Source: Candidatus Melainabacteria bacterium (GTDB lineage: Bacteria; Cyanobacteriota; Vampirovibrionia; Caenarcaniphilales; Caenarcanaceae). From it: a DNA stretch of 64,000 nucleotides. The notes under the pieces are model-generated. The model was not told the origin of the DNA. It worked only from the letters and a program-made list of their open reading frames with translations, and did no database searches. Both the position numbers and the translations under genes were made by a program. The DNA lies in contig DUDU01000040.1 of assembly GCA_005110395.1 (NCBI GenBank), forward strand, positions 4,153 to 68,152, given 5' to 3'. Positions 6,921 to 37,929 of this stretch are shown here, piece by piece (within the stretch, counting starts at the first letter, position 1; the number at the start of each line of letters is the position of its first letter).

Positions 6921-7160
6921 TTGAAAGAATTTGATTGAAAAAGTTTCATTACAAAAATGTTGATAGAAAAACTGCTCTTGGAAAAAATCTAGCTTAGAAA
7001 AAACATTAGTGAGTTTAAAATATTAATGAGATTCAGTAAGTTAATGTTCGCTTTTGATGGCAATCCAGTATCTAACAAAAATGAAGCAAAATTTCACAGT
7101 ATTTCTACCAATCTAGTAATCTTTTCTTATCTCAATAATCGCTGTACTAAATCCCATTTA

Positions 7161-8294
7161 ATGAATACGCAAACTACAGTAAAAAAAATCCCTTTTATAA
7201 GTTTAAGAACAGAGCCTGGTTTTGATGAAGCGGTGGAAGCTCGATGGCAAAAAGCTTTGCATAATTCTCAATTTATTGCAGGTCCAGCAACCAAAGAATT
7301 AGAATCAAAAATACTCGACTATACTCAAGCCAACAATTTTATTCCTTGCGCAAATGGAACTGATGCTATTCAATTAGCCCTTAGAGCAGTTGGTATAGGA
7401 CAAGGGGATTCTGTTCTTTTACCCGATTTTACCTTTTGGGCAACTTATGAAGCAATTATCAATGTTGGTGCTACCCCAATTATGGTTGATGTATCGAGTC
7501 AAGATTATCAAATGGATTTCGATTTATTTTTAGAAGCGGTTCAGAAATTTAAGCCCAAAGCTGCTATTTTGGTTCACCTTTATGGATGGTGCTCTAGCCG
7601 ATTGAATGAATTTCGAGCATATTGCAGTAAAGAGAAAATCTTTTTAATTGAAGACGGAGCACAGTCTATTGGTAGTTTATTTGAAGGTGAGCGTATTTTT
7701 CAATCAGCCTTTTTAGCAACCACTTCTTTTTATCCTGCAAAAGTTTTAGGGGCAGCTGGTGATGCTGGCGGTATTTTCTGCCAGGACAAAGCTATTGCTG
7801 AAAAATGTGTACAACTGGGAAATCATGGCAGAAGCTCGCATTATGGACATGAGTATGTGGGTTGGAATTCTAGAATGGATGAATTACAAGCCCATTTTCT
7901 TTGTGAAAGCCTTGAGAAACTGCCAGAAAGAATAAAGTCACGTCGTGAATCAGAAAAAAAATATTTTGACTTTATTAGTAAAAATCCGAATCTACCATTA
8001 GAAGCAAAATTAGAACCTAGCAATATACAAGGCAATGGTTATTTGCAAGTCAGTATTGCCAAAAGTAGCTACAAAGATTTGTCGGCCAAACTCAATTTAC
8101 TTGGCATCACCACAGGCAATGTTTATCCTAGCCCAATGTCAGCTCAAAAAGGCGCCATAAATCCTATATTAGTAAGCAAAGATCATGTAACTCAGCAAAT
8201 ATCAAAAAAAGTTATCAACTTACCTTTATTTCCATACATGACTGATTCGGAAATCGATTATGTTTGCGATTGTTTGGTTAATTCTTCTAGTTAA
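7161..8294 (+). CDS. DegT/DnrJ/EryC1/StrS-family PLP-dependent sugar aminotransferase
   Basis: IPFISL..., ELESKILDYT, CANGTDAIQLAL, LIEDGAQSIGS and SFYPAKVLGAAGDAGG are typical of this family. Start moved to the ATG at 7161 (MNTQTT) because the upstream 45 codons are not family-like. Confidence 0.85.
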   Translation: MNTQTTVKKIPFISLRTEPGFDEAVEARWQKALHNSQFIAGPATKELESKILDYTQANNFIPCANGTDAIQLALRAVGIGQGDSVLLPDFTFWATYEAIINVGATPIMVDVSSQDYQMDFDLFLEAVQKFKPKAAILVHLYGWCSSRLNEFRAYCSKEKIFLIEDGAQSIGSLFEGERIFQSAFLATTSFYPAKVLGAAGDAGGIFCQDKAIAEKCVQLGNHGRSSHYGHEYVGWNSRMDELQAHFLCESLEKLPERIKSRRESEKKYFDFISKNPNLPLEAKLEPSNIQGNGYLQVSIAKSSYKDLSAKLNLLGITTGNVYPSPMSAQKGAINPILVSKDHVTQQISKKVINLPLFPYMTDSEIDYVCDCLVNSSS

Positions 8295-8513: not shown

Positions 8514-11500
8514 TCATTTACGCCCTCCCGCTGAAATAGCGAACTCAGCATTCTCAATCCCAATATCATCAATTTCTTTCATAAGTCTATCTGTTTCAGT
8601 TAAAGCAACAATCACTTTCTGGTAGTGCAAAATATCTTCGTAGCTTAACTCTCTTCCTTTACGGTCTTTGAGCCACTTTTGAGCTGGTTGATAGCCTCCA
8701 ATATAAAACTCCCATGCAAGCTTAGGTACATTATCAAAATACTGTTCAGAGTTTATGTAAACCTTACTTTCGTCTTTGAACTCAACCTTCTCAACCTGAT
8801 TACTTCCATCTTGTGGATAGCTAGTTATGTATTGATTGGCTTTTGAGGATTCCAACAAATGAAGCTCTCTAAGCTCAGAACCTTTCTCAACAAGCTTCCA
8901 AAATCTTTCTTGATTGTCAGGATAAGGTACTCTGGGGAAATCAACTTTTAAAAATTCTTTGTACTTTTCTCTATAACTGGGTGAATGTAAAACTGCATAA
9001 ATGTAATCAAGTAAATCAATTGGTGCAAAAGAATTACCTCCCCCGCCTCCTTGTAAGGAGGAGCTAAAACCTTGATCTTCTGAGTTCCCCCTTTCAAGGG
9101 GGGTAGGGGGTAACTTCTCAGCCGTGAATTTCAAACCTAGTTTATTTGCAATTTCATTAACAATTTCGTCTTTGAGATTAGGTCTTCTCTCTGGTTCTTT
9201 CTCAATTAGAGAGGTTTGTTCTTTGGATTGTTCAGAATATAGATAAAGTGGGAAACAATTTGCTTTACCCCTGTTACTGTACGTTGTTCTATTGTCGATA
9301 GGATCACGAGTTAGAAGAATATGGCTAAAAGATGAATCTACGTATTGCCTCATTGCAACTAATGCGTAGTTGTCTGTCTTGCGGGAACTTTGCAATAAGT
9401 GTTTCATAACATTTATTCTCGGATATGCAATAAACCCTCCTTTAAAAGTGAATAAAGTTTTTCTCCAGTCAAAAGGACGATAGAGAATCTCTCCTATTAA
9501 TTTTTGACTGCTTTCTATATCTTTTTTAGCATTGGAAACTCTCCAATCTCGTCCATCAGAAATTTTGTATTTTGCTTTTATTTGTTCTTCATTTAAATTT
9601 TCAAAATCATTTATAACTTTCAAAAGATCACTTTGAGTGAATTGAATTGCTAATTCATCTTTCTGAGTTTCAATACCATTAGAGTTAACCGTCATAAGTT
9701 CTAAAATTGAAAAGTCTTTTTTATAACTATTTTCATCTTTATAATCTTTGGGTATAAAAAAGTACTCAGGTTCTTTTACAGATAATTCAGTCCAATTAAT
9801 TGATTTAATGCTGTTATTCCAAAGATACTCATATTTTTGCTCACGCTTACCAAAACTATCTAGATGGACTACTGATTTAACTGATTTTGGTTTACCTGTT
9901 CTCACAAAGATATTAATTGATACACCTTGTTTAATATCAAATACATTTTCATCCTCAGAACCATCAGGTGAAACTTCTCTTTTATCAGAAGCTCCGTGCA
10001 AGTCGTAAATATAGATTTTATCGAAGCTCTCACTCAATGACTTTCGCATCTGTCTATGAGTAATTCCATCAATAAAAGAATTATTCGTAATCATTGCAAC
10101 AATGCCTTGCCCGTTCTTATCAATAAAGTGCTGAGCATAACGAATAAACTTTATGTAGTCATCGTCTAAATTTATCTTCTTCTCATTCAAATCCTTTTTG
10201 TATTCTTTTATTAGTTCTAGAATCCACTCGCCTTTATTGCTTGAACTGACTGAATAAGGCGGGTTGCCCATTACAACCATAACAGGGGTATTTTTCTTAA
10301 TATCATTCGCTTCCTGAGCCTCAGCACTTAACCAAGTAGCAAATAAACTTCCAGTATGAGGATGAGCCTCTTCCAGTGCATTAGTCAAAAAAACTCTAAA
10401 TCTTTGTGGATTTTTCGGGTCTTTCGGTTTGTATCCAGTTTCTTGTAAAAGTAAATCGAGTTTTAAATGAGCAACTGCATAAGAGGCCATCAAAAGCTCA
10501 AAACCATTCAAGCGAGGAATTAAATGTTCATCAACATACTTACTCCAAATACCTTGTTGACCTTCAAAGTTTTTATAAACATGTTTAATAACTTCACTCA
10601 AAAAAGTCCCTGTTCCAGTGGCTGGATCAAGAATTTGCACTTTGTCTATTTTTTGCTTGACTTTTTTGTATTTTTTTCCGTCATAAACTTCCGAATCAAT
10701 TTCAATTTGGCTAGTATCAGCTAAGCCCATTGGCAAAGCAAAATCAGTTTTCAGTATCTCATCAACTGCTCTAACAATAAAATTCACAATTGGCTCAGGA
10801 GTGTAGTAAACGCCTTTACTCTTACGCAATTTTGGGTTGTACTCAGCTAGAAAGGTTTCATAAAAATGGATAATTGGATCATTACGTTGAGTTGAACTTC
10901 CAAATTCTTTGAGTATTTTCTTTAAATCACAAGCTCTAAAAACTTCTGCTAGAGCGTCAACAATCCAAACCAATCTATCATCAAGGTCATAACCTGCAAT
11001 ATAATGAAAAAGCTTTCTCAAAAAAGGATTCGACTTTGGAACAAGCTCAGCGGCTTCCTTACGGGAAAAGTCTTCTAAAGTCTCATCATGAAAGCGAGCG
11101 GCAAACATTCCATAAGCAATAGTCTGAGCGTAAATATCAGCAAAAGTAGCTTCATCAATATCATGAATTAAAACTTGCTTAAAGGCTTCCATCTGGTCTC
11201 TAAGAGTTGTTTCAGCTTCATCCTTTAATGCTCTGAAAATTATGTCCTGCATTAATTTGGCTTTTCCCGCCATTATCTTTGCAAGCTTAGGAGCTGATTT
11301 AATGGTTTGACCTGAATAAGTACAAAAGTCTTTAATCAAGCTATCAAATTGATCCCAATTCCCTTTTAAGGGCTTTAGCTTCCCTTCATCGAGCTCAGCT
11401 ATTTTGACTGAAGCAACCTTCTCACCATTCCTAAACAGCCTAAATTCAAGGTAATCAGTAATAAACAAATTGTCCAGACTGGCTTTGTAACGCTTTATTT

Positions 11501-11783
11501 GCTCACTCTTTTCAGTTTTATCCAGCGACTCTCCAATATCTTTAGCCTCAATATAGCCAATTGGAATCTCACCTTTAGTTAAAATGTAATCAGGCGCTCC
11601 ACATTGTTGACGTTTGGGCTCATTGGTACAAGAAATACCTTTAACCAAACTTTCCACCAACTGGCTTAAATCACCTCTGTATGTGTGTTCCGTGGCATTG
11701 CCTTGCTTGAATCGGCTTGAAATGATTTGAAAGTATTCCGAAATATTCAAAATTTTTAATGGATAAATAATTAATTTCTCCAT
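8514..11783 (-). CDS. type IIG-like restriction-modification enzyme: PD-ExK nuclease, gamma-class N6-adenine methyltransferase and specificity region in one polypeptide
   Basis: N-terminal GAPDYILTKGEIPIGYIEAKDIG (PD...EAK nuclease motif). Motif I is LDPATGTGTFL and lies upstream of motif IV, VVMGNPPYS. C-terminal LLDYIYAVLHSPSYREKYKEFLKVDFPRVPYP matches the C-terminal region of type ISP/IIG enzymes. Start placed at MEKLIIYP (ATG at 11783). Confidence 0.8.
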   Translation of the reverse strand: MEKLIIYPLKILNISEYFQIISSRFKQGNATEHTYRGDLSQLVESLVKGISCTNEPKRQQCGAPDYILTKGEIPIGYIEAKDIGESLDKTEKSEQIKRYKASLDNLFITDYLEFRLFRNGEKVASVKIAELDEGKLKPLKGNWDQFDSLIKDFCTYSGQTIKSAPKLAKIMAGKAKLMQDIIFRALKDEAETTLRDQMEAFKQVLIHDIDEATFADIYAQTIAYGMFAARFHDETLEDFSRKEAAELVPKSNPFLRKLFHYIAGYDLDDRLVWIVDALAEVFRACDLKKILKEFGSSTQRNDPIIHFYETFLAEYNPKLRKSKGVYYTPEPIVNFIVRAVDEILKTDFALPMGLADTSQIEIDSEVYDGKKYKKVKQKIDKVQILDPATGTGTFLSEVIKHVYKNFEGQQGIWSKYVDEHLIPRLNGFELLMASYAVAHLKLDLLLQETGYKPKDPKNPQRFRVFLTNALEEAHPHTGSLFATWLSAEAQEANDIKKNTPVMVVMGNPPYSVSSSNKGEWILELIKEYKKDLNEKKINLDDDYIKFIRYAQHFIDKNGQGIVAMITNNSFIDGITHRQMRKSLSESFDKIYIYDLHGASDKREVSPDGSEDENVFDIKQGVSINIFVRTGKPKSVKSVVHLDSFGKREQKYEYLWNNSIKSINWTELSVKEPEYFFIPKDYKDENSYKKDFSILELMTVNSNGIETQKDELAIQFTQSDLLKVINDFENLNEEQIKAKYKISDGRDWRVSNAKKDIESSQKLIGEILYRPFDWRKTLFTFKGGFIAYPRINVMKHLLQSSRKTDNYALVAMRQYVDSSFSHILLTRDPIDNRTTYSNRGKANCFPLYLYSEQSKEQTSLIEKEPERRPNLKDEIVNEIANKLGLKFTAEKLPPTPLERGNSEDQGFSSSLQGGGGGNSFAPIDLLDYIYAVLHSPSYREKYKEFLKVDFPRVPYPDNQERFWKLVEKGSELRELHLLESSKANQYITSYPQDGSNQVEKVEFKDESKVYINSEQYFDNVPKLAWEFYIGGYQPAQKWLKDRKGRELSYEDILHYQKVIVALTETDRLMKEIDDIGIENAEFAISAGGRK
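9034..9113. repeat. GC-rich nested-hairpin miniature repeat, copy A (inside the RM coding sequence, in frame)
   Basis: ttacctccccc...gggggtaa termini. Internal hairpins cctccttgtaaggagg (9046-9061) and ccccctttcaaggggg (9087-9102). It stands out as a GC-rich patch in AT-rich DNA and encodes PPTPLERGNSEDQGFSSSLQGGGGGNS. Confidence 0.6.
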
Positions 11784-12081
11784 TTTAGAAGCTCTCTTAA
11801 AAAAGAAGATTAAGCAAGACGATTCAGCATTATTTTGGTCATAGCAAAGAAAATTCAAACCTCAGAGTTAGTAGTTTTCATTTCATAATCTTTGAATAGC
11901 CCCCTAAAACCCTCAAAAAACAAAAACGTCTTTTCAACCATCCATTTGAATGCATGAACATAAAAATACTTTGCACAACCTTTATGTCTGCCTAATTAGC
12001 TGGTATTCTGCTAAATTCCCACAGTAATGCTGAGCTGTATACAAATATATTTCTCTTTCTTGCTTTTACCAATTTCCACCA

Positions 12082-12321
12082 TTGAGGTTTTTGTCATCTC
12101 CCGCCATGAAATTTGCTCTCACGCATTATGAATCAACTACTCATTCTGGTGTTAGCAAAGATTTGCGAGATAAAGTTGGTGTTACGGATGGACTGATTCG
12201 ACTGTCTATTGGAATGGAACATCCTGATGATTTGATATATGATTTGGATAATGCTTTTAAAGCGACTTTTGCTGAAAACCAGAAAGAGTATAGTATTTAT
12301 TTAGCTAACAAAACACATTGA
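12082..12321 (+). pseudogene. C-terminal remnant (~70 codons) of a Cys/Met-metabolism PLP enzyme (cystathionine gamma-synthase/beta-lyase or O-acetylhomoserine sulfhydrylase type)
   Basis: ...THYESTTHSGVSKDLRDKVGVTDGLIRLSIGMEHPDDLIYDLDNAF matches the conserved C-terminal end of this ~400-aa family (LIRLSVGIE..DLI.DL). No upstream part of the gene is present in 11784-12081. Confidence 0.65.
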
Positions 12322-13502
12322 TTAGTACTCAAAACAAATACATTCAATCCAAATATATTCAGAGCTGGATTCATTCACCAGTTGTGGATTTGGTCTTTAT
12401 TATTTCACCTGCTTTTCTGATTACGCTGATTGTAATTTTATTTCGTAATTCATTCGATCATACGGAGGCTTTGCCATTATGGGCTTGGATTGTATTTATT
12501 GTATTAGTCGACGTGGCACATGTATACAGTAGTGTATTTCGTACTTATTTCAACCCACTAGAATTCAAACAAAATGCAACTCTGTTTACGCTTATACCTT
12601 TTTTTGCATGGCTGATTAGTGTAATTCTTTATAGCTTGAATGATTTGCTTTTCTGGAGGGTTTTGGCTTATATTGCCGTTTTCCATTTTGTCAGGCAACA
12701 ATATGGTTTTATGGCATTATATTCTCGAAAGCAACCTGATGAATATAAGCCATTTAAGCTTTTAGACGCAGCTTTGATTTATATTGCAACAATATATCCG
12801 ATTATCTTTTGGCATACTCATTTACCACGTAATTTCAATTGGTTTGTCGAGGATGATTTTCTTGTAGGCCTTCCAGTATTAGTTGAACGAATATGTTTAA
12901 TTCTTTATTTGTTAATAAGCGTTTGTTATATTGTCAAAGAAGTTTATTTAAGTATCAAAACTAAATATTTCAATATACCTAAAAATTTAATTTTATTAGG
13001 TACGGGACTTTCCTGGTATGTTGGAATAGTATTGCTTAATGGTGACATGGCTTTTACGGCAATCAATGTAGTAAGCCATGGTATTCCCTATATGGCTCTT
13101 TTGTGGATATATGGTAGAGGGATTTCGCAACAATCAGATCCATTGATATCTGAACAAGCGATATTGCAATTCAGATTTCCCAAATTAAATCTCAGTTACA
13201 AATTTTTATTTTCCATAATTTGCATACCTGTATTTTTGGTGTTTTTATGGTCTTTTGCTTACTTGGAAGAATCACTTTGGGACAGTTTAGTTTGGCGTGA
13301 AAACCCAACTCTATTTCAAGCATTCTATTCTTTACCACTTTTAAAATCTAAACAATTTTTGGCAATTATTGTTCCATTACTTTCACTACCACAGCTTACA
13401 CACTATATACTTGATGCCTTTATTTGGAGACTCAAACCGCTTAATGATAAGGCGAATAACAATTGGGTGAATACTTTGTTTTATACTTCAAATAATCAGT
13501 AA
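12318..13502 (+). CDS. polytopic integral membrane protein, unknown function
   Basis: 394-aa ORF with about 10 hydrophobic helices and a TTG start in the track. An imperfect tandem NKYIQSKYIQS lies at the N-terminus. Possible conserved polar motifs are FHFVRQQYGF and VSHGIPYMALLW. No family recognised. Confidence 0.55.
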   Translation: MISTQNKYIQSKYIQSWIHSPVVDLVFIISPAFLITLIVILFRNSFDHTEALPLWAWIVFIVLVDVAHVYSSVFRTYFNPLEFKQNATLFTLIPFFAWLISVILYSLNDLLFWRVLAYIAVFHFVRQQYGFMALYSRKQPDEYKPFKLLDAALIYIATIYPIIFWHTHLPRNFNWFVEDDFLVGLPVLVERICLILYLLISVCYIVKEVYLSIKTKYFNIPKNLILLGTGLSWYVGIVLLNGDMAFTAINVVSHGIPYMALLWIYGRGISQQSDPLISEQAILQFRFPKLNLSYKFLFSIICIPVFLVFLWSFAYLEESLWDSLVWRENPTLFQAFYSLPLLKSKQFLAIIVPLLSLPQLTHYILDAFIWRLKPLNDKANNNWVNTLFYTSNNQ

Positions 13503-26513: not shown

Positions 26514-27605
26514 TTAAACAGAAACTGGCTCAGCTTGATGATCTAAAACTCTCTTTAAGGTCTTATCAACCAATACTCTGCCTGTTCCAATTACAACGCA
26601 TTCAAGCGGATTTTCTGCAATATATACGGGGACTTCAACTTCATTCCTAATTGCAACATCAAGGCTGTCGAGTAGAGCTCCACCACCAGCTAAAGTAATT
26701 CCTCTTTCAAAAATATCAGCAGCAAGTTCTGGGGGAGTTCTTTCTAATGTTCTTTTGACGGCTTCAACTATTGAGGTGAGTGGCTCAACCATAGCTTCTC
26801 TCACTTCCATTTGGCTGATTGAAACAGTTCTTGGAAGCCCATTAATTAAATTCAGACCCCTAACTTCAAACTTGTCATCACCATTATTGCCAAATTGAGG
26901 CCCTAAGGCTAATTTGATTTCTTCAGCTGTACGTTCACCAATTGCGAGATTGTAAACTTTTTTGAGATATTGAACGATAGATTCATTCAATTCATCGCCC
27001 GCTACACGGATTGACTCACTAACTACAATTCCAGACAAACTGATAACTGCAATCTCAGTGGTACCACCTCCAATATCAACAATCATACTTCCGACCGGTT
27101 CTGCAACTGGTAAACAAGCTCCGATTGCAGCAGCCATTGGTTCTTCAATCAAATAAACTCTCCCTGCACCAGCATTTTCGGCAGCTTCTTTAACGGCTCT
27201 TTTCTCGACTGAAGTAATTCCAGATGGAACACCAATAGCTAAAGTTGGCTTACTAATCGAAGAGAGAAGATTGCTCTTAGTGGCTCTTTTGATAAATTCA
27301 CTTATCATTTGAGAAGCATAATCAAAATCAGCAATTACGCCGTCTTTGAGGGGTCTAATGGCTCTGAGATAGTCAGGAGTGCGGCCTATCATTTTGCGAG
27401 CTTCACTACCAACTGCTAAGACTTCGCCGCTTCGGTAATCAACAGCCACAACTGATGGCTCATTTAAAATAATATTGAGTTTATAAGGAGTATTTCTTCC
27501 AGATGGCTCACAAACGCAAACCAAAGTATTTGCTGTTCCTAAGTCAATCCCAATTGAAGCATTCATTGAAACATTTCCAAACAATTGATTGAACCAACCC
27601 ATCAT
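26514..27605 (-). CDS. mreB: rod-shape-determining actin homologue MreB
   Basis: IGIDLGTANTLV, EPSVVA, IEEPMAAAIGA, VDIGGGTTEIAVISL and LAGGGALL. Confidence 0.92.
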   Translation of the reverse strand: MMGWFNQLFGNVSMNASIGIDLGTANTLVCVCEPSGRNTPYKLNIILNEPSVVAVDYRSGEVLAVGSEARKMIGRTPDYLRAIRPLKDGVIADFDYASQMISEFIKRATKSNLLSSISKPTLAIGVPSGITSVEKRAVKEAAENAGAGRVYLIEEPMAAAIGACLPVAEPVGSMIVDIGGGTTEIAVISLSGIVVSESIRVAGDELNESIVQYLKKVYNLAIGERTAEEIKLALGPQFGNNGDDKFEVRGLNLINGLPRTVSISQMEVREAMVEPLTSIVEAVKRTLERTPPELAADIFERGITLAGGGALLDSLDVAIRNEVEVPVYIAENPLECVVIGTGRVLVDKTLKRVLDHQAEPVSV

Positions 27606-28574: not shown

Positions 28575-28620
28575 AGAAATTAGAAAACCATTTGCAAGAA
28601 ATTAGAAAACCATTTGCAAG
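28575..28620. repeat. exact 22-bp tandem duplication
   Basis: agaaattagaaaaccatttgca occurs twice back to back (period 22) and is followed by ag. It lies inside the integrase remnant region. Confidence 0.85.
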
Positions 28621-28624
28621 GGTA

Positions 28625-28830
28625 ATTGAAAAAACAGGACTCAATCCGAAGTAGGTGGTCAGGCATACACTAAGCTATACGGTGATTACTCATCTAATGC
28701 AAGCTGGCGTTAACTTACCCACGTGAAGAGGATTTCAGCACACAAAACTTTGATTATGGTGGAAAGGTATTCTCATCAAAACACTGAGCATATTCAATCC
28801 GCTTTTGATAGGATTGAAACAAAGAATTAG
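28625..28830 (+). pseudogene. C-terminal remnant of a tyrosine recombinase/phage-type integrase, frameshifted
   Basis: Two frames read HTLSYTVITHLMQAGVNLPT and then VKRISAHKTLIMVERYSHQNTEHIQSAFDRIETKN*. This is the H-x-L-R-H ... G-H ... Y box of integrases, with the R/H positions substituted and one frameshift. Only about 70-85 codons remain. Confidence 0.7.
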
Positions 28831-29004
28831 TGGATGATCTTACTAGGTATTTATTTAAATTTCGTCTAATAACCGCTAGTAACTTCTTCTATTTCATTCA
28901 CCATATTTCCGCTTTGTTTCAGTGATTTCAGCTCTGTTTTTAAAACCGCAAAGTAATGTAATAAATATTTTTTATACTCTGAATTTAGTTTTATTTTTTG
29001 CATT

Positions 29005-31932
29005 TTATTTGGTGAGTTTATCGGGGCATTTATTTTGAATCACTTCTAATACCTCTTTGGGTATTTTCTCTTTAGCTGGAAATTTAGAGGCTTTACAGAA
29101 AATAGATTTATCTGAAATCCACTCTGAACCATTTAAATCAGCATCAGAAAGGTCTTCGTTTTCTATAATTTCTTCTAATTTTATATCCGCATCTTCGATT
29201 AATTCTTTAGATGGAAACTGCAATTTATTCTTACAAGCAGGTTTCTCTTTAACTTCTTTGAGTAAGTCTTTATCCAATTTTGTGTTCCAAATGCTTATTG
29301 CTTCGCACAATTGATCGACAACTAATCCGCATACTAATATACCACTACTTTCTGTACCTTTTAAATTTGCATTTATTAATATCGAATCTTTCAATTTAGT
29401 ATTAGTTAATTTAGCATTCTCTAATTCAGCATTTGTTAATTCAGCATTTGTTAAATCAGTTTTTGTTAAATCAGTTTTTGTTAAATTAACTTTTACAAGA
29501 GATTTATTTTTTATCTTTTGTACCCAATCTACCTGACGGGGAAGAATTGCCTCAGTTAAATCAGCATTCTCTAAATTAGCTTCAGTTAAATCAGCATTCT
29601 CTAAATTAGCTTCAGTTAAATCAGCATTAGTTAAATCAGCATTAGTTAAACCTACTTTTACATTACTTGGAAACTTTATAGTGCCACTTATTGTTGCCCC
29701 TCTCAAACTTATTGCGGGTGTATATGTATTGAATTTTTCTTTCTGTGTCTCCATTTCTTTAATATCAACTTGAAAAAACTTATCTTCCCAGCTATCACCT
29801 GAAGGCCATTGCCCAGTATTGTTTAATAAATCTTGCCAAATTTTCATATAAGAAACGAAAAATTCATCCATGGCTTTAATAATGAATAAATTTTTAGGTA
29901 TTTCTTCTATTTCAAGCTTAGATAAATCCAGATTATGAATAGTTGATTTATCTAAAATTAGAGCTTCATTCGTTTTTCCAATAATTTTTACATTGCTGAT
30001 TTTGTTTGCCGCTTTCCATGGTAAATAAAGATCTCTTTCATTTCTTAATTCATTGTGATTATCTTTATCTTGGGTTTGATTAATATTTTCAATCCTCAAA
30101 TTAATGGGATAAATTGACATATCGGCAATTGTCCAGAAAGATACAAAGCAAGCAAATAAACTAATTCCAAAGCAAATCAGAGAGCTTTTTTCTAACTGTG
30201 AATTTCCTTGATTTCCAAAAATACGATTTAATTCAAAAGAGAATATATTTTTTATTTTTATAATCGGCTCAAATACTAATTTCAAAAAGCATAAACCTAA
30301 TATAACTAAAATCAGCAATTTCACCAATATTATAGGAGTAGTTATACCAATTAGAGAAATTCCAAGAGATTTAAGTGGAATAAAAAATACTGTATACGAG
30401 AAAAGCAAAATAAAAGTTGTCCACTTATTTAATCTTGGGAGTAACTCAAGACAATGAAGAAAATCAACTTTCCAATTTCTCTTTGCATAAGCTAATCTGG
30501 CAGATTTAGCAATTCTCCTGAACCCCCATAGACAAATAAAAATTAAAAAGCTAAGGAAAAACCAAGAGTATAAAATGCTACCTAAAGCAATCAAAGCAAA
30601 TATTGTAAATTTTGAAAATGGTTTAACTTGTTTATTGTCTGGTTTAATGAATTTGTAAAACTGACAAACAATTAAAGCTAATAGAGCCAATTGACAAAAG
30701 AAATAACAAGTTTTATATGGATCATATTCTGCTTGATTGAATTTCAGAATAATTCTCAAAGATTCCGCTACAGTTGCATATAGAGCAAAATACCAAAAGA
30801 CTTTTTTATCTGCCTTTGCATTCTTTTGAATAATTTGCCATCTTTCAGAATCTGGATGCAATTCATCTTTTTTATACCAATAAATAAAAAGCTTCACAAA
30901 AATAAATGAAATTAAATACCAAATTAAAATTATTACTATTAAAGCTATTAAAGTTGCGAATAATAATAATAGAAGAATATTTATAAAAGGAAGATTCTTC
31001 TCAAAACCATCTATTATTCTCTCTAAAGAGTCTAATATTGGGTATGATCTTACTCCCCAGTCAATAAGAACAAAAGCATAAACTGAACTAATTAACAATG
31101 TCGCAAAAGACAATTTAAGGTATTTATTATTTAAAATTATTCTTAGTTTCCGTTTTAATATTTTTCTTCGTTGGCTTTGCGCGAGTAAACAAATAAAATT
31201 ACCTAAATAAGCAGTAAAGAAAGTAATTGCCAACATACTCCAGACCAAAGGCAAGCCACTTATGAAATTAGGCTGAGCTAAAAGCCAAATAAACCAAGGA
31301 CAAAAAGATAAAATACCCCAAATAAAAGCATTAATTTGATTAGTATATTTATTATTATCCTGACTATTACTTATCTCTCTAAATCTGCGTTGATAATAAG
31401 TAGCTAAAATAAAAGCAAAGCAAGTTATAGCAAAAACCAAGCTCTCTTTAATCCATTCACGCCCTTTGAGAGTTACATAAAAAGCTGTTAAGCAAACAAA
31501 AACAATACTATAAAAAGTAGTTAATTCCGCAAAAAGAGTTTGTATTGTGCCAAAAATACCACTTTCTGGATAAACCAATGAATTATAAAGAGAAAAAGGA
31601 AATACTCTATTCTCTCTTTCTTCTTTAGGTATAAACTCTACTTTTTGATGTAATTCATGCACTTTATAGAGAGCGACTTGCAAGCCAATATATATAAAAA
31701 CTAATAATAAAGGTGCAAACCAAACAAATATTTCTGTAGGTACTTCACTTTGAATAACTGGTAGTTTTAAGTTTGAATTTATAAGATATAAAGCTTTATC
31801 GGGAATAATAGACAAACTTATGAGTACAAATAAAATTGCACCTAAATATATAAAATAAACCTTTTCAGCTTGCCCAGCGGCATCTTTAATATTGCTATAA
31901 ATCCAGTCTGGTGTTGTATCTTCGTTTTGCAT
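29005..31932 (-). CDS. 975-aa polytopic membrane protein (about 14 or more TM helices) with C-terminal pentapeptide-repeat blocks
   Basis: The N-terminal ~620 aa are almost entirely hydrophobic helices. The C-terminal region has two runs of A(D/N)LxX repeats: NADLTNADLTEANLENADLTEANLENADLTEAIL and NLTKTDLTKTDLTNAELTNAELENAKLTNTKLKDSILINANLKG. Confidence 0.8.
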   Translation of the reverse strand: MQNEDTTPDWIYSNIKDAAGQAEKVYFIYLGAILFVLISLSIIPDKALYLINSNLKLPVIQSEVPTEIFVWFAPLLLVFIYIGLQVALYKVHELHQKVEFIPKEERENRVFPFSLYNSLVYPESGIFGTIQTLFAELTTFYSIVFVCLTAFYVTLKGREWIKESLVFAITCFAFILATYYQRRFREISNSQDNNKYTNQINAFIWGILSFCPWFIWLLAQPNFISGLPLVWSMLAITFFTAYLGNFICLLAQSQRRKILKRKLRIILNNKYLKLSFATLLISSVYAFVLIDWGVRSYPILDSLERIIDGFEKNLPFINILLLLLFATLIALIVIILIWYLISFIFVKLFIYWYKKDELHPDSERWQIIQKNAKADKKVFWYFALYATVAESLRIILKFNQAEYDPYKTCYFFCQLALLALIVCQFYKFIKPDNKQVKPFSKFTIFALIALGSILYSWFFLSFLIFICLWGFRRIAKSARLAYAKRNWKVDFLHCLELLPRLNKWTTFILLFSYTVFFIPLKSLGISLIGITTPIILVKLLILVILGLCFLKLVFEPIIKIKNIFSFELNRIFGNQGNSQLEKSSLICFGISLFACFVSFWTIADMSIYPINLRIENINQTQDKDNHNELRNERDLYLPWKAANKISNVKIIGKTNEALILDKSTIHNLDLSKLEIEEIPKNLFIIKAMDEFFVSYMKIWQDLLNNTGQWPSGDSWEDKFFQVDIKEMETQKEKFNTYTPAISLRGATISGTIKFPSNVKVGLTNADLTNADLTEANLENADLTEANLENADLTEAILPRQVDWVQKIKNKSLVKVNLTKTDLTKTDLTNAELTNAELENAKLTNTKLKDSILINANLKGTESSGILVCGLVVDQLCEAISIWNTKLDKDLLKEVKEKPACKNKLQFPSKELIEDADIKLEEIIENEDLSDADLNGSEWISDKSIFCKASKFPAKEKIPKEVLEVIQNKCPDKLTK
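29395..29652. repeat. tandem 15- and 30-bp DNA repeats encoding the pentapeptide blocks
   Basis: The core cagttaaatcagcattctctaaattagc of the 30-mer is duplicated exactly at 29551-29610 (the two units differ only at their first base). 15-mers (tcagcatttgttaa / tcagtttttgttaaa) are repeated at 29425-29485. Confidence 0.8.
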
Positions 31933-32047
31933 TTAGTTAGATTTTTGTGGCAAGTTAGGTGGTTTTAAGTTTTTAACAAATAATTTATAGAGTGAAGGTA
32001 CTCGAAAACAAGCTCTCTTTCCCCGTACTCTATTTAGTTTTTACTTT

Positions 32048-33127
32048 TTAGCCAGCCGTAACTAAATTACCCGCTACACTTTTAAGATTTGTAATCCCCA
32101 AATCAGGTAGATTTAAAGTTTTAGCGATAGCATCATATAAATAATTTTCTAAGATTCTAAAGCCGTCTCTGGTTGGGTGTATTTCATTAAGCCAAAATCT
32201 TTTCGGGGTTTGATCTTGGGTAACTGGAATACTTGGAATCCTCGGCAATTGACCTTGAGCATATTTAGATAAACAATCATAAGTATCAACATAGCTAAAA
32301 TTAAATTGTTCTTGTAACCTTAATTTATCTAAAACATTCTTTTTAAAGCCTTCAAGAACGGTGTTAACAATGTCAGCTTGCTTATGTTTGTCTTTAATTC
32401 CTTCATGTTCCAAATGTCTGACAATCCAATTTTTATTATTATGAATAATTTCTGATAAATCAATACCAAGAAAATCCATCTCTAGGTTTGCACCACCATT
32501 GTCGTAAGTAGCGTCATCATAACAATGTCCTAAAACTGGAATTTTATAATCAGACAAAAGAGTTAAAAACCATTCATATTGTTTCAGTATTTCCTGATAA
32601 ATATTTTCTAAACTTTTAGTATCAATATCTTTATTTTTTATATACTTTGCTACATTTTCAGCCGCCAAGTCATTACCACCCAGAGAGATTAAAACTAAAT
32701 CAAAATTACCTTTTTTAAGTAATCCGTCATAAAAATTTCTATGCTCTTCATCAAATAAATCTTTTGCTTCAGCTCCATTTAAACCAACTCTATAAATACC
32801 AACTGTTCGTCTATCTCTCAAACAATCTAAAAAATTACCGTCTCCACCATGAAGCAAATGTCCATCTTTACCAAAGCCCGGATAATGAAACCATGAATCA
32901 CCAATAGCTAGAATTTTAATAATTTTTTTATTAGTACAAAAATTATTAAAAGAATTTATACCATTATTATTAATCTTGTTTACCCAATCTCCTGCTTTAA
33001 AAGCTTCTTCTGCAACATTTCCAACTAATCCATAAAAGTATTCATCAGCATATAAATAACATAATGGATCTGGTAAGTCTTGTTTCAACTTAATATTAGA
33101 GTTTTGCACTGGAGAGTATATTGTCAT
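32048..33127 (-). CDS. SGNH/GDSL-family hydrolase (lipase/esterase-like), no signal peptide
   Basis: Block I ILAIGDSWF (GDS nucleophile), block II VGLNGAEA, block III ISLGGNDL, and a block V-like NEIHPTRDGF. Confidence 0.75.
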   Translation of the reverse strand: MTIYSPVQNSNIKLKQDLPDPLCYLYADEYFYGLVGNVAEEAFKAGDWVNKINNNGINSFNNFCTNKKIIKILAIGDSWFHYPGFGKDGHLLHGGDGNFLDCLRDRRTVGIYRVGLNGAEAKDLFDEEHRNFYDGLLKKGNFDLVLISLGGNDLAAENVAKYIKNKDIDTKSLENIYQEILKQYEWFLTLLSDYKIPVLGHCYDDATYDNGGANLEMDFLGIDLSEIIHNNKNWIVRHLEHEGIKDKHKQADIVNTVLEGFKKNVLDKLRLQEQFNFSYVDTYDCLSKYAQGQLPRIPSIPVTQDQTPKRFWLNEIHPTRDGFRILENYLYDAIAKTLNLPDLGITNLKSVAGNLVTAG

Positions 33128-33186
33128 TTTTCAGTTTTCCTTTTGTATGTAAGTTTAGTTTTGTTTAGAATCATTATTAGTATCTG

Positions 33187-34191
33187 CTAAATAGCTTTTC
33201 TAAACTGCTTATACTGCTCCCAATCAAAAAAGTATTCGGTAGAATCCCGCTTTTCACTTAAGAAAATACGAGCCGCTTTAACACCTTCAAGGAATAAATC
33301 TATTAGTTCATCATTACTCATAGCAAAATTAAAGGCTTGATTTTCATCTACCTTAATCCAAGAAACTAATTGTTTATAATCGGGGTTTTTGTGAATAAAT
33401 TCAAAGTCGCCCATTTGACGAGCCGTATTTAAAATGGAACTTGTAAATTCAGCAATATTACCTGTGTCATTTATTCCATGAGGTTTATAATCTTTTGCGT
33501 CTTTTATCCAAGCTTGCCTAAAATGAAATGAAGCGGAGCGGTCATCACCAAGCTTTACTCCCAAAGTTGGGCATTTAGGATTACCCGTTTTTGTATGGAA
33601 AGAATCAATCGGGAAATTTGAAGCAATTCCACCATCTGTAAAAACCGCTTTTGAAGGTATTTCTCCCGTATAACCAGTTAAGTTTTCCCAGTCTTCTTTT
33701 GTATCTGGCGGCAAATCACTAATTTCAAAATGTTTAAAGAAAAATGGCACAGACATCGAAGCCGCCACATAATCCCCAACCGAGAAATCAGTACTATTTT
33801 CCCAGTTCTTGCAATACAGACGAGCCATTTTGGGGAAAGCCACTTTGCTGCTTGTGGTGAGGTCTGTTGCCACAATCTTAAAATGTTCTAAAAACCATTC
33901 ATTATTAAAATCAATTTTGTTTTCTTGAAAGTCAAATTTTTTCAAATACTCCAATCTGTTTTTTCTAAAATTTTCTACTGTTAAAGCATTTTGTTCCTCA
34001 AGTAATCCTTTAATCCAGTTAGGAAAGGCTTTATTTGGATTAATATAATTTTTATCTATTAATTTGTACAAAATATCTTTTTTATCAAGTAGTCCCAGAG
34101 TATTTTTATCGTCAGTTAAATTTTTTAGCCAGAGGGAGACAACGGATATAGTTGCATCAAATGGCGCATTATTAAATATTTCCCGAATCAA
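33187..34191 (-). CDS. patatin-like phospholipase, C-terminal part (catalytic Asp motif), in a different frame from the N-terminal part
   Basis: VFTDGGIASNFPID is the patatin D-G-[GA] catalytic-Asp motif. The ORF has only a TTG start, and its frame is open from 34246 downward, overlapping the end of 34214..34768. Confidence 0.7.
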   Translation of the reverse strand: MIREIFNNAPFDATISVVSLWLKNLTDDKNTLGLLDKKDILYKLIDKNYINPNKAFPNWIKGLLEEQNALTVENFRKNRLEYLKKFDFQENKIDFNNEWFLEHFKIVATDLTTSSKVAFPKMARLYCKNWENSTDFSVGDYVAASMSVPFFFKHFEISDLPPDTKEDWENLTGYTGEIPSKAVFTDGGIASNFPIDSFHTKTGNPKCPTLGVKLGDDRSASFHFRQAWIKDAKDYKPHGINDTGNIAEFTSSILNTARQMGDFEFIHKNPDYKQLVSWIKVDENQAFNFAMSNDELIDLFLEGVKAARIFLSEKRDSTEYFFDWEQYKQFRKAI

Positions 34192-34213
34192 TTTTTTTAC
34201 TTGCTTAAGAAAA

Positions 34214-34768
34214 TTATTTGTTTCTTTCTTTTTTTTGCTCTTTAGTTTTTGTTTTCTTTAAATTGTTTAAAAATTTATGTCCTAAGTCTTTGCTTTCATC
34301 CTTTAAATCGACAAAGTCGGCCAGTCCACAATTATTATCTTGGTCTCTTTTATTAATTTTTTCTAGTAGTATTTCTAAAACCCATTCGCTGGCAGTTTTT
34401 TCTGAATTCTCTGGGTCACCGCCATAACAAGCTAACAAAGTTGAAGTAATAGCACCAGCGGAAGTACCAGCAATTGATAAGAATCTAATATTATTTTTCT
34501 CTAAAGCATATGTATAGCCAAGCAAAGCTATTCCTAGCATAACTCCGCCTTCAAGCACTAAATCAACAAATTGATACTCCTTACCATTCAAGTTTCCCTT
34601 TAAATCAGATATTGTTCTATTTTTCGTCAAATTAGAAATTAATTGGAGTTCTTCTTGAACACGGGAATTATTTATAACCTGAGTTAAAGAAAGTACTTTG
34701 TCTTTTTTTAGATCTTTTGCAGCAAGAAAATCTTGAGCTAAATTCTGAGTATAAGTTAATTGCGACAT
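34214..34768 (-). CDS. patatin-like phospholipase, N-terminal part (oxyanion hole plus G-x-S-x-G nucleophile)
   Basis: LVLEGGVMLGIALLGYTYAL (G-G-x-x-G region) and SIAGTSAGAITSTLLA (GxSxG). The ORF ends KEQKKERNK* directly after an A8 homopolymer on the coding strand (T8 at 34229-34236 on the + strand). Confidence 0.7.
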   Translation of the reverse strand: MSQLTYTQNLAQDFLAAKDLKKDKVLSLTQVINNSRVQEELQLISNLTKNRTISDLKGNLNGKEYQFVDLVLEGGVMLGIALLGYTYALEKNNIRFLSIAGTSAGAITSTLLACYGGDPENSEKTASEWVLEILLEKINKRDQDNNCGLADFVDLKDESKDLGHKFLNNLKKTKTKEQKKERNK

Positions 34769-35442
34769 TTTTCACTCTCCTAGCACTAAATAATTTCTTA
34801 AGCTTTTAAATTTTAACAAAAAAAAATTTTTTCTAAGGACTAGGATTTATGTTAGACCTTCCATGAGATCAATACAGATTCACAAAAAGAAAACAGCTAA
34901 AAAGCAAAGGAAATCGGCATAAAAGAAAGAGTCCATCTAGAGAAATCTGTAAAAGGTTACTGAAAGAAAGATTTGAGAAAGAATGAATGTACTAATTTAA
35001 AAGGTACAGAAAAAAATGCCAAGAAAAATATGTCCACAATACAATTCATACTAAGTTGCAATCAAAATGCAACATTAACTAGCTCTAATTCACTGATTAG
35101 TTGAACTTTTTTGTGTCATGCTTCGATCGCATTTTAGTATCAACATTCCTAAATCAAAATGGAAGATTATATGTAGAAGTTTTTAAATATATTCTGGTTT
35201 TATTATTTGCAATCGGAGCTTTTAGGCTTTTTTTCATGTCGCTCCAGGTCATTAACTACCTCTCTTTGTACTGAATATCTTTATTGCTAAAAAAATCAAT
35301 TAGATATAAAATTCGCTGATTTAAATTTCTTTTTGTACTTCGTTTAATTTATTTATTAATTGTTATTAGTATTGGTAATTATGCGAGTATTACTCTCAAT
35401 CAGCTTCTTGCAGATGTGCTTTAAAAAATTTCCTTTCCCCTT

Positions 35443-36618
35443 TCAATTATCAACACGCAAATGATATACAACTGGTTTTCTGATTTTTGCAGCTTTTAAA
35501 ATATCTTTTTGTTCTGGTTCAAAATTATCCCAATGCTCATCAATTAAGCTTTTATTGAGTGATTTGACATATTGATATCCATCTTCGAGTTTGCGGATAA
35601 AATCCCAGCTTTTAATTGGATCATAAATATCACCTTGAATAGGCTTAAGAGAACATGCACCTATTTTTTTCAATTGATTATCTTTCATATATTCCTTGAT
35701 TTCGGATTTTAATCCTTCAAGAGATTCCTCTAATGGTGCAATCTGTTTTTTTAAGCTTAAAAACTCTTCTACCTTGCTTTCTATATCAGCTTTATTTGGC
35801 AAACTTAAATCATGCATGAATTTATGTTCGGGACATTGTTCTTTGAATCCGCAACTTCGACATTTCCATTCGGCTGGACTTGTATTGTATTTATCTGAAT
35901 TGCAGCCTCTTTCAAGAATTTCCAAATCCATATTTAGAATTTTCTCAAGTAATTCATGAACATCGTCATCAGTTCTAGTTGTATAAACTATTTCATCTTG
36001 AATTGGATAGTAAAGAGCCAATCTCTTTGGTGCTTCACGAGACAAGCTTTGCTTACAAGCCAAATAATATAAAGTCAATTGCTGGTCTGCATCAGCTTGA
36101 AGACAGGTTTGAACTTGATCACTAATTTTATAGTCTATAACCGTTAAACTTCCATCTTCTTCACGATCAACACGGTCTATTCTTCCCCCAAGCTTAAATT
36201 GACCCAAATCAACTTGAAATCTTCCCTCAAGATAAATTGGTAATTTGAAATCTTTTTGCTTTTCTCTTTCATAAAAGTTTTTTAGAGAGACGAGACCTCG
36301 CTCTTCAAGGGCTTTTTGAATATCTTTACTTGGAATAAATAGTTTCTGACTTAATTTGTCCCATTCCTGCCTAAATTCTTCTTGCCATTCTGGAAGAGAG
36401 ATTACGCCTTGTCGAAATAAGCTAGTTTGAATTTGACTTTTATAAAATTTCTCAAAATAATTGTGAATGAGACTACCTAATTGCATTTTGGGATCAAAAT
36501 CAAATAAGCTGTCAGGTTTGAGACCCAACAATTCATGAGCACAAAACTTTAGTTCGCACTCTTCCCAAAGCCGGATTTTTGAATAACTATAAGATTTCAC
36601 AATTAATAAAACTAACAA
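35443..36618 (-). CDS. Cas4/RecB-like PD-(D/E)XK nuclease with a Cys cluster and a coiled-coil C-terminal extension
   Basis: YSYSKIRLWEECELKFC (N-terminal Cys), GRIDRVDREEDGSLTVIDYKIS (D...D/E-x-K), QLTLYYLA (QxxxY) and WKCRSCGFKEQCPEH (C-x2-C-x5-C). This pattern is that of Cas4/AddB-type iron-sulfur nucleases. Confidence 0.75.
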   Translation of the reverse strand: MLVLLIVKSYSYSKIRLWEECELKFCAHELLGLKPDSLFDFDPKMQLGSLIHNYFEKFYKSQIQTSLFRQGVISLPEWQEEFRQEWDKLSQKLFIPSKDIQKALEERGLVSLKNFYEREKQKDFKLPIYLEGRFQVDLGQFKLGGRIDRVDREEDGSLTVIDYKISDQVQTCLQADADQQLTLYYLACKQSLSREAPKRLALYYPIQDEIVYTTRTDDDVHELLEKILNMDLEILERGCNSDKYNTSPAEWKCRSCGFKEQCPEHKFMHDLSLPNKADIESKVEEFLSLKKQIAPLEESLEGLKSEIKEYMKDNQLKKIGACSLKPIQGDIYDPIKSWDFIRKLEDGYQYVKSLNKSLIDEHWDNFEPEQKDILKAAKIRKPVVYHLRVDN

Positions 36619-36864: not shown

Positions 36865-37929
36865 TCATTGTTCTATTTCCTCAAGGTACTCATCTTCATT
36901 ATTCCAAAAACGCAAGTTTTGACTTGTTGCATAGCCTTGTGCCTCATCTAATGAATGGAACAACTGAACTAATTTAGGAACATGAACATTCTGATTAAAT
37001 CGATTAAGAAAAATTTTTAATAGATAAAATTCAATAGACGAGGATATTATGCAGAAATCAACAACATTGTTATCTTGATCAAGCATCTTCATCGGAACTG
37101 GTAAATATTTTCCATGCCCAGGTGAGCAATCAACTTCAACAAAGTCGAACTTTTGAACTTTTGTTTCATTCCATTTAACTGTTATTTCCCAGAATCTGGC
37201 AGCTGAACATGGATATTGTAATGCTCCCCATTTTGCATCAATGTTTTCTTCACATATCGTTTCAGAAGATAAAGATTCAAATGTAATTGCCAAAGATGGC
37301 TCTAACCTATTAAAAAAACTTTGTCCTCCATCATCATAAGTACAACTCCAATGAGCCTCAATGGAGTCTTTATGAAAACTACTTATTTTCTTTAATTCAA
37401 ATTTTAAGCGTTCAAGAGGATCTTTTATATTTAATCCAAATCTTTGTTTCCACAAATTTTCAACTTCATAGTCTTTGGCGGTTTTGTCTATAGGTGTATT
37501 TGAAGATCCATTGCGTGTATAAACAGCACCTGCTTTTACTCTTTTTTGCCCATCAAAATAGTCTTCGTAAAGAAAATAGGGTTTGCGCTTCTCTTGGTTT
37601 GCGATTCTCAGCTCTTCAATACTTCCCCATTTATGCATGCTGATTCTAATGCCGTTATTAATCTTTATATTTCTGAGCCAGTCATGAAGTTCAGATTCAT
37701 TATTGAATAACGGCTTAAGATTTGGATTTACAGCTCGTGGCTTTTTATCAGTTAATCCAACAATCAGACGTTTATATTTTTTTTGACTTAAACTATTTGC
37801 AAAACATAAAATATCGTGAAGCAGTTCAGCTTTATTCTTGTGCCAGGTTTCTTTAAAATCTATTGAATCTGATTCATCTTCGTTAATATCAAAAGGCAAG
37901 TCACCAAGCTCTTTTAAATAATCTTCCAT
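36865..37929 (-). CDS. AlbA_2 (Schlafen-like) domain protein with an uncharacterised C-terminal domain
   Basis: The N-terminal EDESDSIDFKETWHKNKAELLHDILCFANS...RLIVGLTD matches the E..lEFK ... AFAN ... iGv pattern of the AlbA_2/Schlafen DNA/RNA-binding domain. Confidence 0.65.
   Translation of the reverse strand: MEDYLKELGDLPFDINEDESDSIDFKETWHKNKAELLHDILCFANSLSQKKYKRLIVGLTDKKPRAVNPNLKPLFNNESELHDWLRNIKINNGIRISMHKWGSIEELRIANQEKRKPYFLYEDYFDGQKRVKAGAVYTRNGSSNTPIDKTAKDYEVENLWKQRFGLNIKDPLERLKFELKKISSFHKDSIEAHWSCTYDDGGQSFFNRLEPSLAITFESLSSETICEENIDAKWGALQYPCSAARFWEITVKWNETKVQKFDFVEVDCSPGHGKYLPVPMKMLDQDNNVVDFCIISSSIEFYLLKIFLNRFNQNVHVPKLVQLFHSLDEAQGYATSQNLRFWNNEDEYLEEIEQ

Follow-up and report, generated by a model that had tools for sequence, protein, structure and literature searches.

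A recombinationally shuffled operon bracketed by a patatin-like phospholipase and a transmembrane pentapeptide-repeat protein in Caenarcaniphilales-type Melainabacteria

The stretch analysed here is 64,000 nt of contig DUDU01000040.1 (assembly GCA_005110395.1) from Candidatus Melainabacteria; we refer to it as the window, and all positions and results are given for it. Three genes stand in a row on its minus strand: a gene for a patatin-like phospholipase (34768..33187), one for an SGNH hydrolase (33127..32048) and one for a 975-aa polytopic membrane protein (31932..29005), which we call TM-PRP for transmembrane pentapeptide-repeat protein. An earlier reading made from the sequence alone had described them as a co-directional cassette with gaps of 59 and 115 nt, and the list of open reading frames (ORFs) gives the same values. 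We find that these genes are one copy of a lineage-specific, multi-copy and recombinationally shuffled operon of Caenarcaniphilales-type Melainabacteria. Its invariant core is a pair of genes, the patatin gene 5' and the TM-PRP gene 3', and the genes between them are exchangeable. Genes were called from the ORF list, domains were assigned with Pfam, defence genes were sought with the hidden Markov models of PADLOC-DB v2, and folds were searched with Foldseek on AlphaFold2 (AF2) models. L-numbers denote the related loci or contigs that were compared.

The patatin/TM-PRP bracket and its cargo

The sequence-only reading had proposed looking for the same genes in other genomes, and the synteny of patatin and TM-PRP is kept there in six architectures at no fewer than three (at least three) genomic sites. 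In the window and in L019-L023 the order is patatin, SGNH hydrolase and the 975-aa TM-PRP. L005 has a patatin, an SGNH hydrolase 81% identical to that of the window, an HExxH protein, two small secreted proteins and a TM-PRP of 799 aa, while L001 has a patatin, a 236-aa HExxH protein, two small secreted proteins and a TM-PRP that is also 799 aa long. L002 and L003 carry a patatin, an HExxH protein, five small genes and a TM-PRP of 585 aa. In L006 and L038 a Schlafen/AlbA_2 gene, matching the PADLOC candidate PDC-S50 at 1.4e-55, stands between patatin and TM-PRP, and in L016-L018 only 87 nt separate the patatin from a TM-PRP that is orthologous to the 975-aa protein over its entire length (75% identity). 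The cargo can accordingly be an SGNH hydrolase, an HExxH (zincin-like) peptidase, small secreted proteins, a Schlafen/PDC-S50 gene or nothing at all. The cassette patatins of these relatives are 37-47% identical to that of the window, and the gaps between genes go down to 87 nt or 1 nt. The proposal of a three-gene unit thus holds for a recurring co-directional unit with patatin and TM-PRP fixed, and fails for the SGNH hydrolase, which is optional cargo: it is present in the window lineage and L005 and absent from L001, L002, L006 and L016-L018. L005 and L006 are loci of one Caenarcaniphilales metagenome-assembled genome (MAG). An alignment-based scan of contigs returned two loci only, both from one Caenarcaniphilales MAG, and a scan of metagenomes returned only a near-identical contig.

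The identities of the individual modules follow no single tree, and the modules recombine at conserved junctions. The patatin of L001 is 98-99% identical to that of L006 and L038, in which both the cargo and the TM-PRP tail are different. The segment from the HExxH gene to TM-PRP is 100% identical between L001 and L005, and L005 has a different patatin together with an SGNH hydrolase. The flanks of L001 and L002 show 97-98.7% DNA identity, and the cassette interiors that they enclose are largely non-homologous.

Three short sequences lie at these junctions. The one that we call the cargo leader (33119..33168, minus strand) is about 40 nt long, contains a ribosome-binding site (…ACTTACATACAAAAGGAAAACTGAAAAATGAC…) and is found 5' of the SGNH gene in the window and L005 and 5' of the HExxH gene in L001, L002 and L005. 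A near-invariant intergenic element of about 60-90 nt (31954..32043, minus strand; core 32033..31987) has the inverted ends ATAGAGT…ACTCTAT and stands 3' of the SGNH gene in the window and L005 and 3' of the patatin gene in L006 and L016-L018, with copies at about 1735-1810 in L005, 1153-1242 in L006 and 4353-4440 in L016. This element is far better conserved than the adjoining coding DNA and travels with changing upstream genes; an internal promoter, a binding site for a protein and a junction for recombination are all conceivable. We rejected an RNA structure, as the predicted fold is no better than that of shuffled sequences (z = 0.2) and no Rfam family matches, and also an attC-like site, as the order of the core-site motifs, judged by eye, is wrong and an integron integrase is lacking. 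The third sequence is the 3' junction (29037..28884, minus strand), made up of the 3' end of the TM-PRP gene and the start of the downstream gene. It is duplicated in L002, where the copies at 11010-11125 and 11706-11824 bracket a DUF2442/DUF4160 gene pair, after which comes a HepT/MNT pair. The DUF2442/DUF4160 pair looks like an insertion at the junction accompanied by its duplication.

The gene downstream of TM-PRP is a fourth member of the cassette. Its product has 295 aa in L005, where it is a membrane protein, and 101 aa in L001; in the window the gene is truncated to a 45-aa remnant of about the first 40 codons (28866..29003, minus strand) that adjoins an integrase remnant. No terminators are predicted between the genes of the cassette, which is probably co-transcribed. 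The presumed promoter or leader is the upstream non-coding region at 34769..35049 (minus strand), which has 84-89% DNA identity to the region 5' of the patatin gene in L016 and L018 by blastn.

The small proteins of L001 (8963-10050) and L002 (6696-9264) share a near-identical signal peptide (MKNxIKILCLILLATFNLS…), and their mature parts are unrelated or 34-38% identical and match no Pfam family.

The proteins of the cassette

The first gene had been identified as a patatin from its motifs, and Pfam agrees with this. EGGVMLG at residue 73, GTSAG at 101 (Ser103) and DGG (Asp378) can be read directly in the protein, are invariant in the 28 patatin homologues compared and are kept in the window, so that on sequence the catalytic residues Ser103 and Asp378 are intact. 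PF01734 matches both halves of the split gene above its cut-off (2.1e-14 and 6.4e-09, profile positions 1-89 and 60-190). All invariant residues of a widespread subfamily (about 410 aa, 848 matches, 32-37% identity), which ranges over Bacteroidota, Ignavibacteria, Planctomycetota, Acinetobacter and others, are present in the protein. Its AF2 model has a predicted TM-score (pTM) of 0.82 and is matched about equally by VipD, PlpD, plant patatin, CapE and ExoU in Foldseek; at the sequence level PlpD is matched at E 5e-4.

The patatin gene of the window is split, as had been noted, into two ORFs (34768..34214, 184 aa, and 34191..33187, 334 aa), and its reading frame is interrupted there by one extra A in a run of eight at 34236..34229. 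The two frames overlap at 34257-34214, in a Lys-rich linker coded by A-rich DNA, and the removal of a single A from the run gives a continuous ORF of 526 aa. Exactly this product is public as MFN5540034.1 (NCBI), from a Candidatus Melainabacteria MAG in which MFN5540033 (SGNH) and then MFN5540032 (a partial TM-PRP) follow. Five contigs that we read, L019-L023, have seven A (A7) where the window has eight (A8), are 99.5-99.6% identical to the window and carry the order groES, groEL, Schlafen, nuclease, patatin, SGNH, TM-PRP. The intact 526-aa patatin is encoded on 8 contigs, and split products are found on 5-10 contigs from several sources. Because intact A7 and split forms both occur in multiple near-identical assemblies, the frameshift is a length polymorphism of the homopolymer in the population. 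The intact A7 alleles in several other assemblies rule out that the patatin is an old pseudogene. The difference between A7 and A8 may reflect phase variation, standing variation or a recurrent assembly error.

Independent assemblies are interrupted within the cassette: the last position covered by both L019 and L020 is 30967 of the window, and the start of L007 falls in the A-run (34235). The breaks at 30967 and 34235 suggest strain heterogeneity or repeats at these points.

The SGNH/GDSL hydrolase (32048..33127, minus strand, 359 aa) is matched by PF00657 (Lipase_GDSL) only marginally, at 25.9 bits against a cut-off of 23.6, and PF13472 stays under its own cut-off. Blocks I, II, III and V, which the sequence-only reading had listed, are all recognizable (GDSW at 76 with Ser78, GLNG at 115, GGND at 150 and NEIHP at 314 with His317); in block V the His is present and the usual Asp is replaced by Asn. 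A comparison of the hydrolase with PDB sequences gave no match. Both hydrolases had been described as lacking a signal peptide, in line with our hydropathy scan, in which neither has an N-terminal hydrophobic segment.

TM-PRP (29005..31932, minus strand) was defined from the ORF list, Pfam and hydropathy. Hydropathy gives 13-15 transmembrane (TM) helices, close to the earlier count of about 14 or more, and the two blocks of pentapeptide repeats seen before are recovered by PF00805 (1.8e-23, aa 756-797 and 807-867) with at least eight tandem A(D/N)LXX repeats. The protein can be divided into several parts. The N-terminal membrane domain (aa 1-236; 31225..31932, minus strand) is conserved, with 72-85% protein identity to all cassette paralogues, and the closest relatives match these first ~236 residues only and then diverge completely. 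An extra block of about 7-9 TM helices (aa ~237-608; 30109..31224, minus strand) is common only to the orthologue of L016-L018 and is absent from the paralogues of 585-799 aa. The variable C-terminal soluble region (aa 609-975; 29008..30108, minus strand) contains five Cys and is predicted to be extracytoplasmic. Within it, the pentapeptide blocks (aa 756-867; 29667..29332, minus strand) are coded by DNA tandem repeats of 15/30 nt (29393-29650), the copy number of which varies among near-identical assemblies (P0001 and L007 differ). In L016 (4443-7285), TM-PRP is split within these tandem repeats into 817 and 130 aa; either the cassette has a second repeat tract that breaks the frame, or the assembly is at fault.

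The first 660 nt of the TM-PRP gene are 95.8% DNA-identical between the window and L002, compared with about 67% for the patatins of the same two cassettes. The only background shared between the window organism and L001/L002 is a YibE_F gene with 66% DNA identity; its orthology is uncertain, and we therefore infer no horizontal transfer of the 5' segment.

The membrane domain has no Pfam family. An exhaustive HMMER search recovered a family of 228 representative clusters at E<=1e-3, with an N-terminal helical domain of about 190 aa, the motifs PxW…NI, PD, LP, RxYPW and G..Q, and pentapeptide repeats after it; PF00805 is present in 37 of 39 sampled relatives, and the near-invariant positions of the family are kept in the window protein. 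The AF2 model of the domain is good (pLDDT 87, pTM 0.82), and a Foldseek search of the PDB found no related fold (best E 0.25, TM-score <0.31). The family alignment contains no conserved His, Ser or Cys suggestive of catalysis, and its best-conserved motif (RxYPW…PExG…G, aa 93-129) lies in a predicted cytoplasmic loop, from which we infer a scaffold or signal-relay domain.

The repeat domain most likely faces the periplasm, because the number of helices predicted in the window protein is odd, because the C-terminus is predicted outside in 100 of 122 family members (the commonest form having five helices and the N-terminus inside) and because some relatives end in peptidoglycan-binding or adhesin-type domains (PG_binding_1, cadherin, Big_9 or Lcl_C). 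The sequence-only reading had pointed to the DNA mimics Qnr and MfpA. TM-PRP does share the pentapeptide-repeat beta-helix (PF00805) with these proteins, but they are small, soluble and cytoplasmic, whereas TM-PRP is membrane anchored with repeats predicted outside the cytoplasm, which removes the analogy; the NCBIfam scores are likewise far from either family (Qnr 18.4 bits against 240, MfpA 18.8 against 360).

Possible roles of the cassette

The reading that we favour, with a probability of about 0.35, is that the cassette serves as a conflict module of the defence (abortive-infection) type, anchored in the envelope and equipped with a phospholipase effector. The outward, variable beta-helix of TM-PRP would report an event at the envelope, e.g., phage attack, and the membrane domain would relay the signal through the cytoplasmic loop at aa 93-129 to the patatin. 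The patatin, together with the SGNH hydrolase where there is one, would then degrade the membrane lipids of the cell itself. Such an effector would be costly, and the A7/A8 tract may switch it on and off; the window copy would be an "off" form in which the downstream gene has been lost. Support comes from the bracket being held at three or more sites despite the divergence of its patatins, and from the company that the cassette keeps. A PDC-S50 homologue is part of the cassette in L006/L038 and its neighbour in the window, and the HepT/MNT and DUF4160/DUF2442 pairs lie beside the cassette of L002. A distant TM-PRP relative with an Lcl_C tail (P0023; L010 3766-8126) is closely followed downstream by an AAA_13 protein, for which PADLOC gives the candidate PDC-S06 (2e-146), and another distant relative adjoins a HigB/HigA-like pair. 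Given PDC-S50 in or near the cassette, the pairs of toxin-antitoxin type and PDC-S06 near a TM-PRP relative, the cassette sits in a defence-island-like neighbourhood. Members of the patatin subfamily on an IMG/VR contig (L026), beside a large primase-like gene, and in an island of Acinetobacter that also has an AlpA gene agree with this, as does the low GC content of the cassette (0.283). The intact catalytic residues, the predicted outward orientation of the beta-helix, the homopolymer polymorphism in many assemblies and the lack of predicted terminators also speak for the reading. A bolder version, in which these loci form an undescribed class of modular immune locus with a new-fold membrane domain, a hypervariable periplasmic beta-helix as sensor, a cytoplasmic patatin under its control, plug-in effectors (among them Schlafen/PDC-S50, SGNH and zincin) at dedicated junctions and a homopolymer switch on the effector, is in our estimate unlikely.

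Several observations weigh against a role in defence. No PADLOC model fits any of the three cassette proteins: as the sequence-only reading had put it, the genes match no named system, and PADLOC-DB v2 gave nothing for the N-terminal half of the patatin, the SGNH hydrolase and TM-PRP and only E 0.017 for the C-terminal half of the patatin. The cassette homologues in L001, L002 and L005 gave nothing significant either, and only the Schlafen gene matched (PDC-S50). Neither PDC-S50 nor PDC-S06 is itself more than a candidate. Cargo such as small secreted proteins and a peptidase is unusual for a defence system and fits an effector/immunity arrangement better. The topology on which an outward sensor depends comes from a crude script combining hydropathy and the positive-inside rule, not from a dedicated predictor, and assembly could in principle have created the difference between A7 and A8. 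Finally, the partnership of patatin and TM-PRP appears to be specific to a narrow Caenarcaniphilales-type clade with a TM-domain identity of 72% or more, since there was no patatin near distant TM-PRP relatives in four contexts (L008-L012) and no TM-PRP near more distant patatins in four contexts (L013, L024, L025 and L026).

Comparison with described systems gives partial likenesses only. In CBASS, the cyclic oligonucleotide-based antiphage signalling system, the patatin-like effector CapV disrupts membranes (PMC12480259). By analogy with CapV and CapE, the cytoplasmic patatin-fold phospholipase of the cassette could kill by membrane degradation, and the chain of a CapE filament is matched by Foldseek at E 3e-4. 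Unlike CBASS, the cassette has no gene for a CD-NTase (cGAS/DncV-like nucleotidyltransferase) or another nucleotide signal, and its partner protein is a polytopic pentapeptide protein; a CD-NTase cyclase domain was absent from the six genes between mreB and groEL, and PADLOC gave no CBASS match. The published Lipocone system, likened here by its description, also has a gene for a predicted lipid-directed effector in an operon with a TM-linked pentapeptide protein and hydrolases, and its authors discuss antiviral immunity; the effector there is a Lipocone domain and the hydrolases are secreted glycosidases, in contrast to the patatin found here. In phase-variable contingency genes a coding homopolymer toggles the reading frame, and the patatin gene has such a tract, A8 in the window and A7 in L019-L023, with both states found across assemblies. 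In contrast to such genes, however, the run is part of a Lys-rich linker, whose coding sequence gives rise to A-runs in any case, and its two lengths are known from comparison between assemblies.

Some of the evidence would suit an antagonism locus better than defence. In such a locus the signal-less hydrolases would be exported at competitors or prey, the small signal-peptide proteins would confer periplasmic immunity, and TM-PRP with the downstream membrane protein would be an export or anchor partner or a polymorphic surface part. Up to three signal-less hydrolases stand beside 2-5 small proteins with near-identical signal peptides and divergent mature parts, in L001, L002 and L005 much as in the Tle/Tli lipase pairs of the type VI secretion system (T6SS). 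The N-terminus of TM-PRP is conserved and its C-terminus variable in a locus that is mosaic, in structure the patatin comes closest to the secreted effectors VipD and PlpD (with ExoU, another secreted patatin, among the matches), and some Melainabacteria (Vampirovibrio) are predatory. In contrast to T6SS lipase pairs, however, there are no secretion-system genes, in the window or in the loci seen, and no chaperones, delivery domains or trafficking domains (PAAR, Rhs, LXG or similar) in the loci. The window cassette has no gene for a signal-peptide protein, and it and L016-L018 keep patatin and TM-PRP without any immunity candidate; a cytoplasmic Schlafen-type cargo would also be out of place in an exported lipase set. 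We rank antagonism second and consider it doubtful. A role in remodelling the envelope or surface is suggested by HglK of Anabaena (Nostoc) PCC 7120, which has TM helices followed by C-terminal pentapeptide repeats and is needed for glycolipid localization and septal architecture (PMC8145042). TM-PRP, with helices at its N-terminus and repeats at its C-terminus, resembles it in architecture, Anabaena belonging to the sister lineage of Melainabacteria, and could organize the deposition of lipids or glycolipids together with lipid hydrolases, a varying outward beta-helix and a phase-variable lipase changing the cell surface. The predicted outward repeats, the peptidoglycan-binding or adhesin-type domains of relatives, the varying repeat copy number and the housekeeping context of the related patatin in L013 agree with this. 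Yet HglK is encoded by a single-copy developmental gene with no known patatin pairing, whereas TM-PRP has 13-15 helices and a hypervariable tail, and multi-copy paralogues, cargo swapping, Schlafen cargo, toxin-antitoxin neighbours and a low GC content (0.283, against a window average of about 0.34) point to an accessory role. Remodelling seems rather improbable to us.

It is also conceivable that there is no coupling at all and that patatin and TM-PRP are accessory neighbours merely inherited together in a young clade, the gap between them being a permissive hot spot for insertions and the window copy decaying. The limitation of the association to close relatives, the frameshifted patatin and truncated downstream gene beside an integrase remnant in the window and the split TM-PRP of L016 would all be expected then. 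Against this stand the persistence of the pair at its several genomic sites through 37-47% patatin identity, the tight spacing, shared leaders and lack of predicted terminators, and the intact A7 alleles of other assemblies, and we regard mere co-inheritance as rather improbable too. A phage origin of the cassette was rejected: the TM domain had no match in 50,697 phage records (tblastn) or in IMG/VR, and there was no PHROG match for the patatin or the SGNH hydrolase.

Pentapeptide-repeat proteins are abundant in cyanobacteria and their relatives, and to our knowledge almost none has a known function. The partnership with a patatin and a well-predicted membrane domain without a solved structural relative together provide a testable hypothesis for such proteins. 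If the immune-locus reading is true, it would give a first function to the TM-anchored pentapeptide family described above, and a defence system of this kind would be of an envelope-sensing, lipase-executing type without a nucleotide second messenger. Should the locus not be a defence system, it would still serve well to illustrate a hypervariable locus for surface proteins in Melainabacteria. The near-identical modules recombined at short junctions between strains that are about 98% identical may reveal how an uncultured phylum puts its conflict operons together. What appears to be new is the combination of known parts, restricted to an uncultured lineage, with a function proposed from sequence.

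Flanks and remaining features of the window

The flanks are as the sequence-only reading had described them, with mreB on one side, groEL/groES on the other and an integrase remnant, a nuclease and a Schlafen/AlbA_2 gene in between, as judged from ORFs, Pfam and six-frame reading. mreB (27605..26514, minus strand) forms one edge of the island. A decayed C-terminal fragment of a tyrosine recombinase (…RHTLSYTVITHLMQAGVNL… / …ISAHKTLIMVERYSHQ…), found by six-frame reading at approximately 28600..28830 on the plus strand, marks the disrupted downstream edge of the cassette. On the other side, the nuclease (35443..36618, minus strand) had been called Cas4-like: it is a PD-(D/E)XK nuclease (PDDEXK_1 7e-33) with a DUF7376 tail, and Cas_Cas4 stays under its cut-off. 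The Schlafen/AlbA_2 gene (36865..37929, minus strand) scores 28 bits against a Pfam cut-off of 25.3 and matches PDC-S50 at 2.4e-45. No Rfam families were found in the window between 27500 and 38200.

Distant patatins occur in varied surroundings. One belongs to the Acinetobacter island with AlpA mentioned above. In L026, a viral contig of IMG/VR, a member of the patatin subfamily (5959-7449) has nearby a helix-turn-helix regulator, coiled-coil membrane proteins and a 906-aa primase-like ORF, which we take by eye, not by comparison with Pfam, to be P4-alpha-like.

Elsewhere in the window, Pfam gave nothing at E<=1e-5 for three sizeable ORFs, at 53605-56070 (821 aa), 12318-13502 (394 aa) and 4596-5780 (394 aa). 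A restriction-modification-type gene lies some 17 kb from the cassette (8514-11858, minus strand); its 1114-aa product combines methylase domains (N6_Mtase/MmeI/Eco57I) with a C-terminal specificity domain of Type ISP (9e-85).

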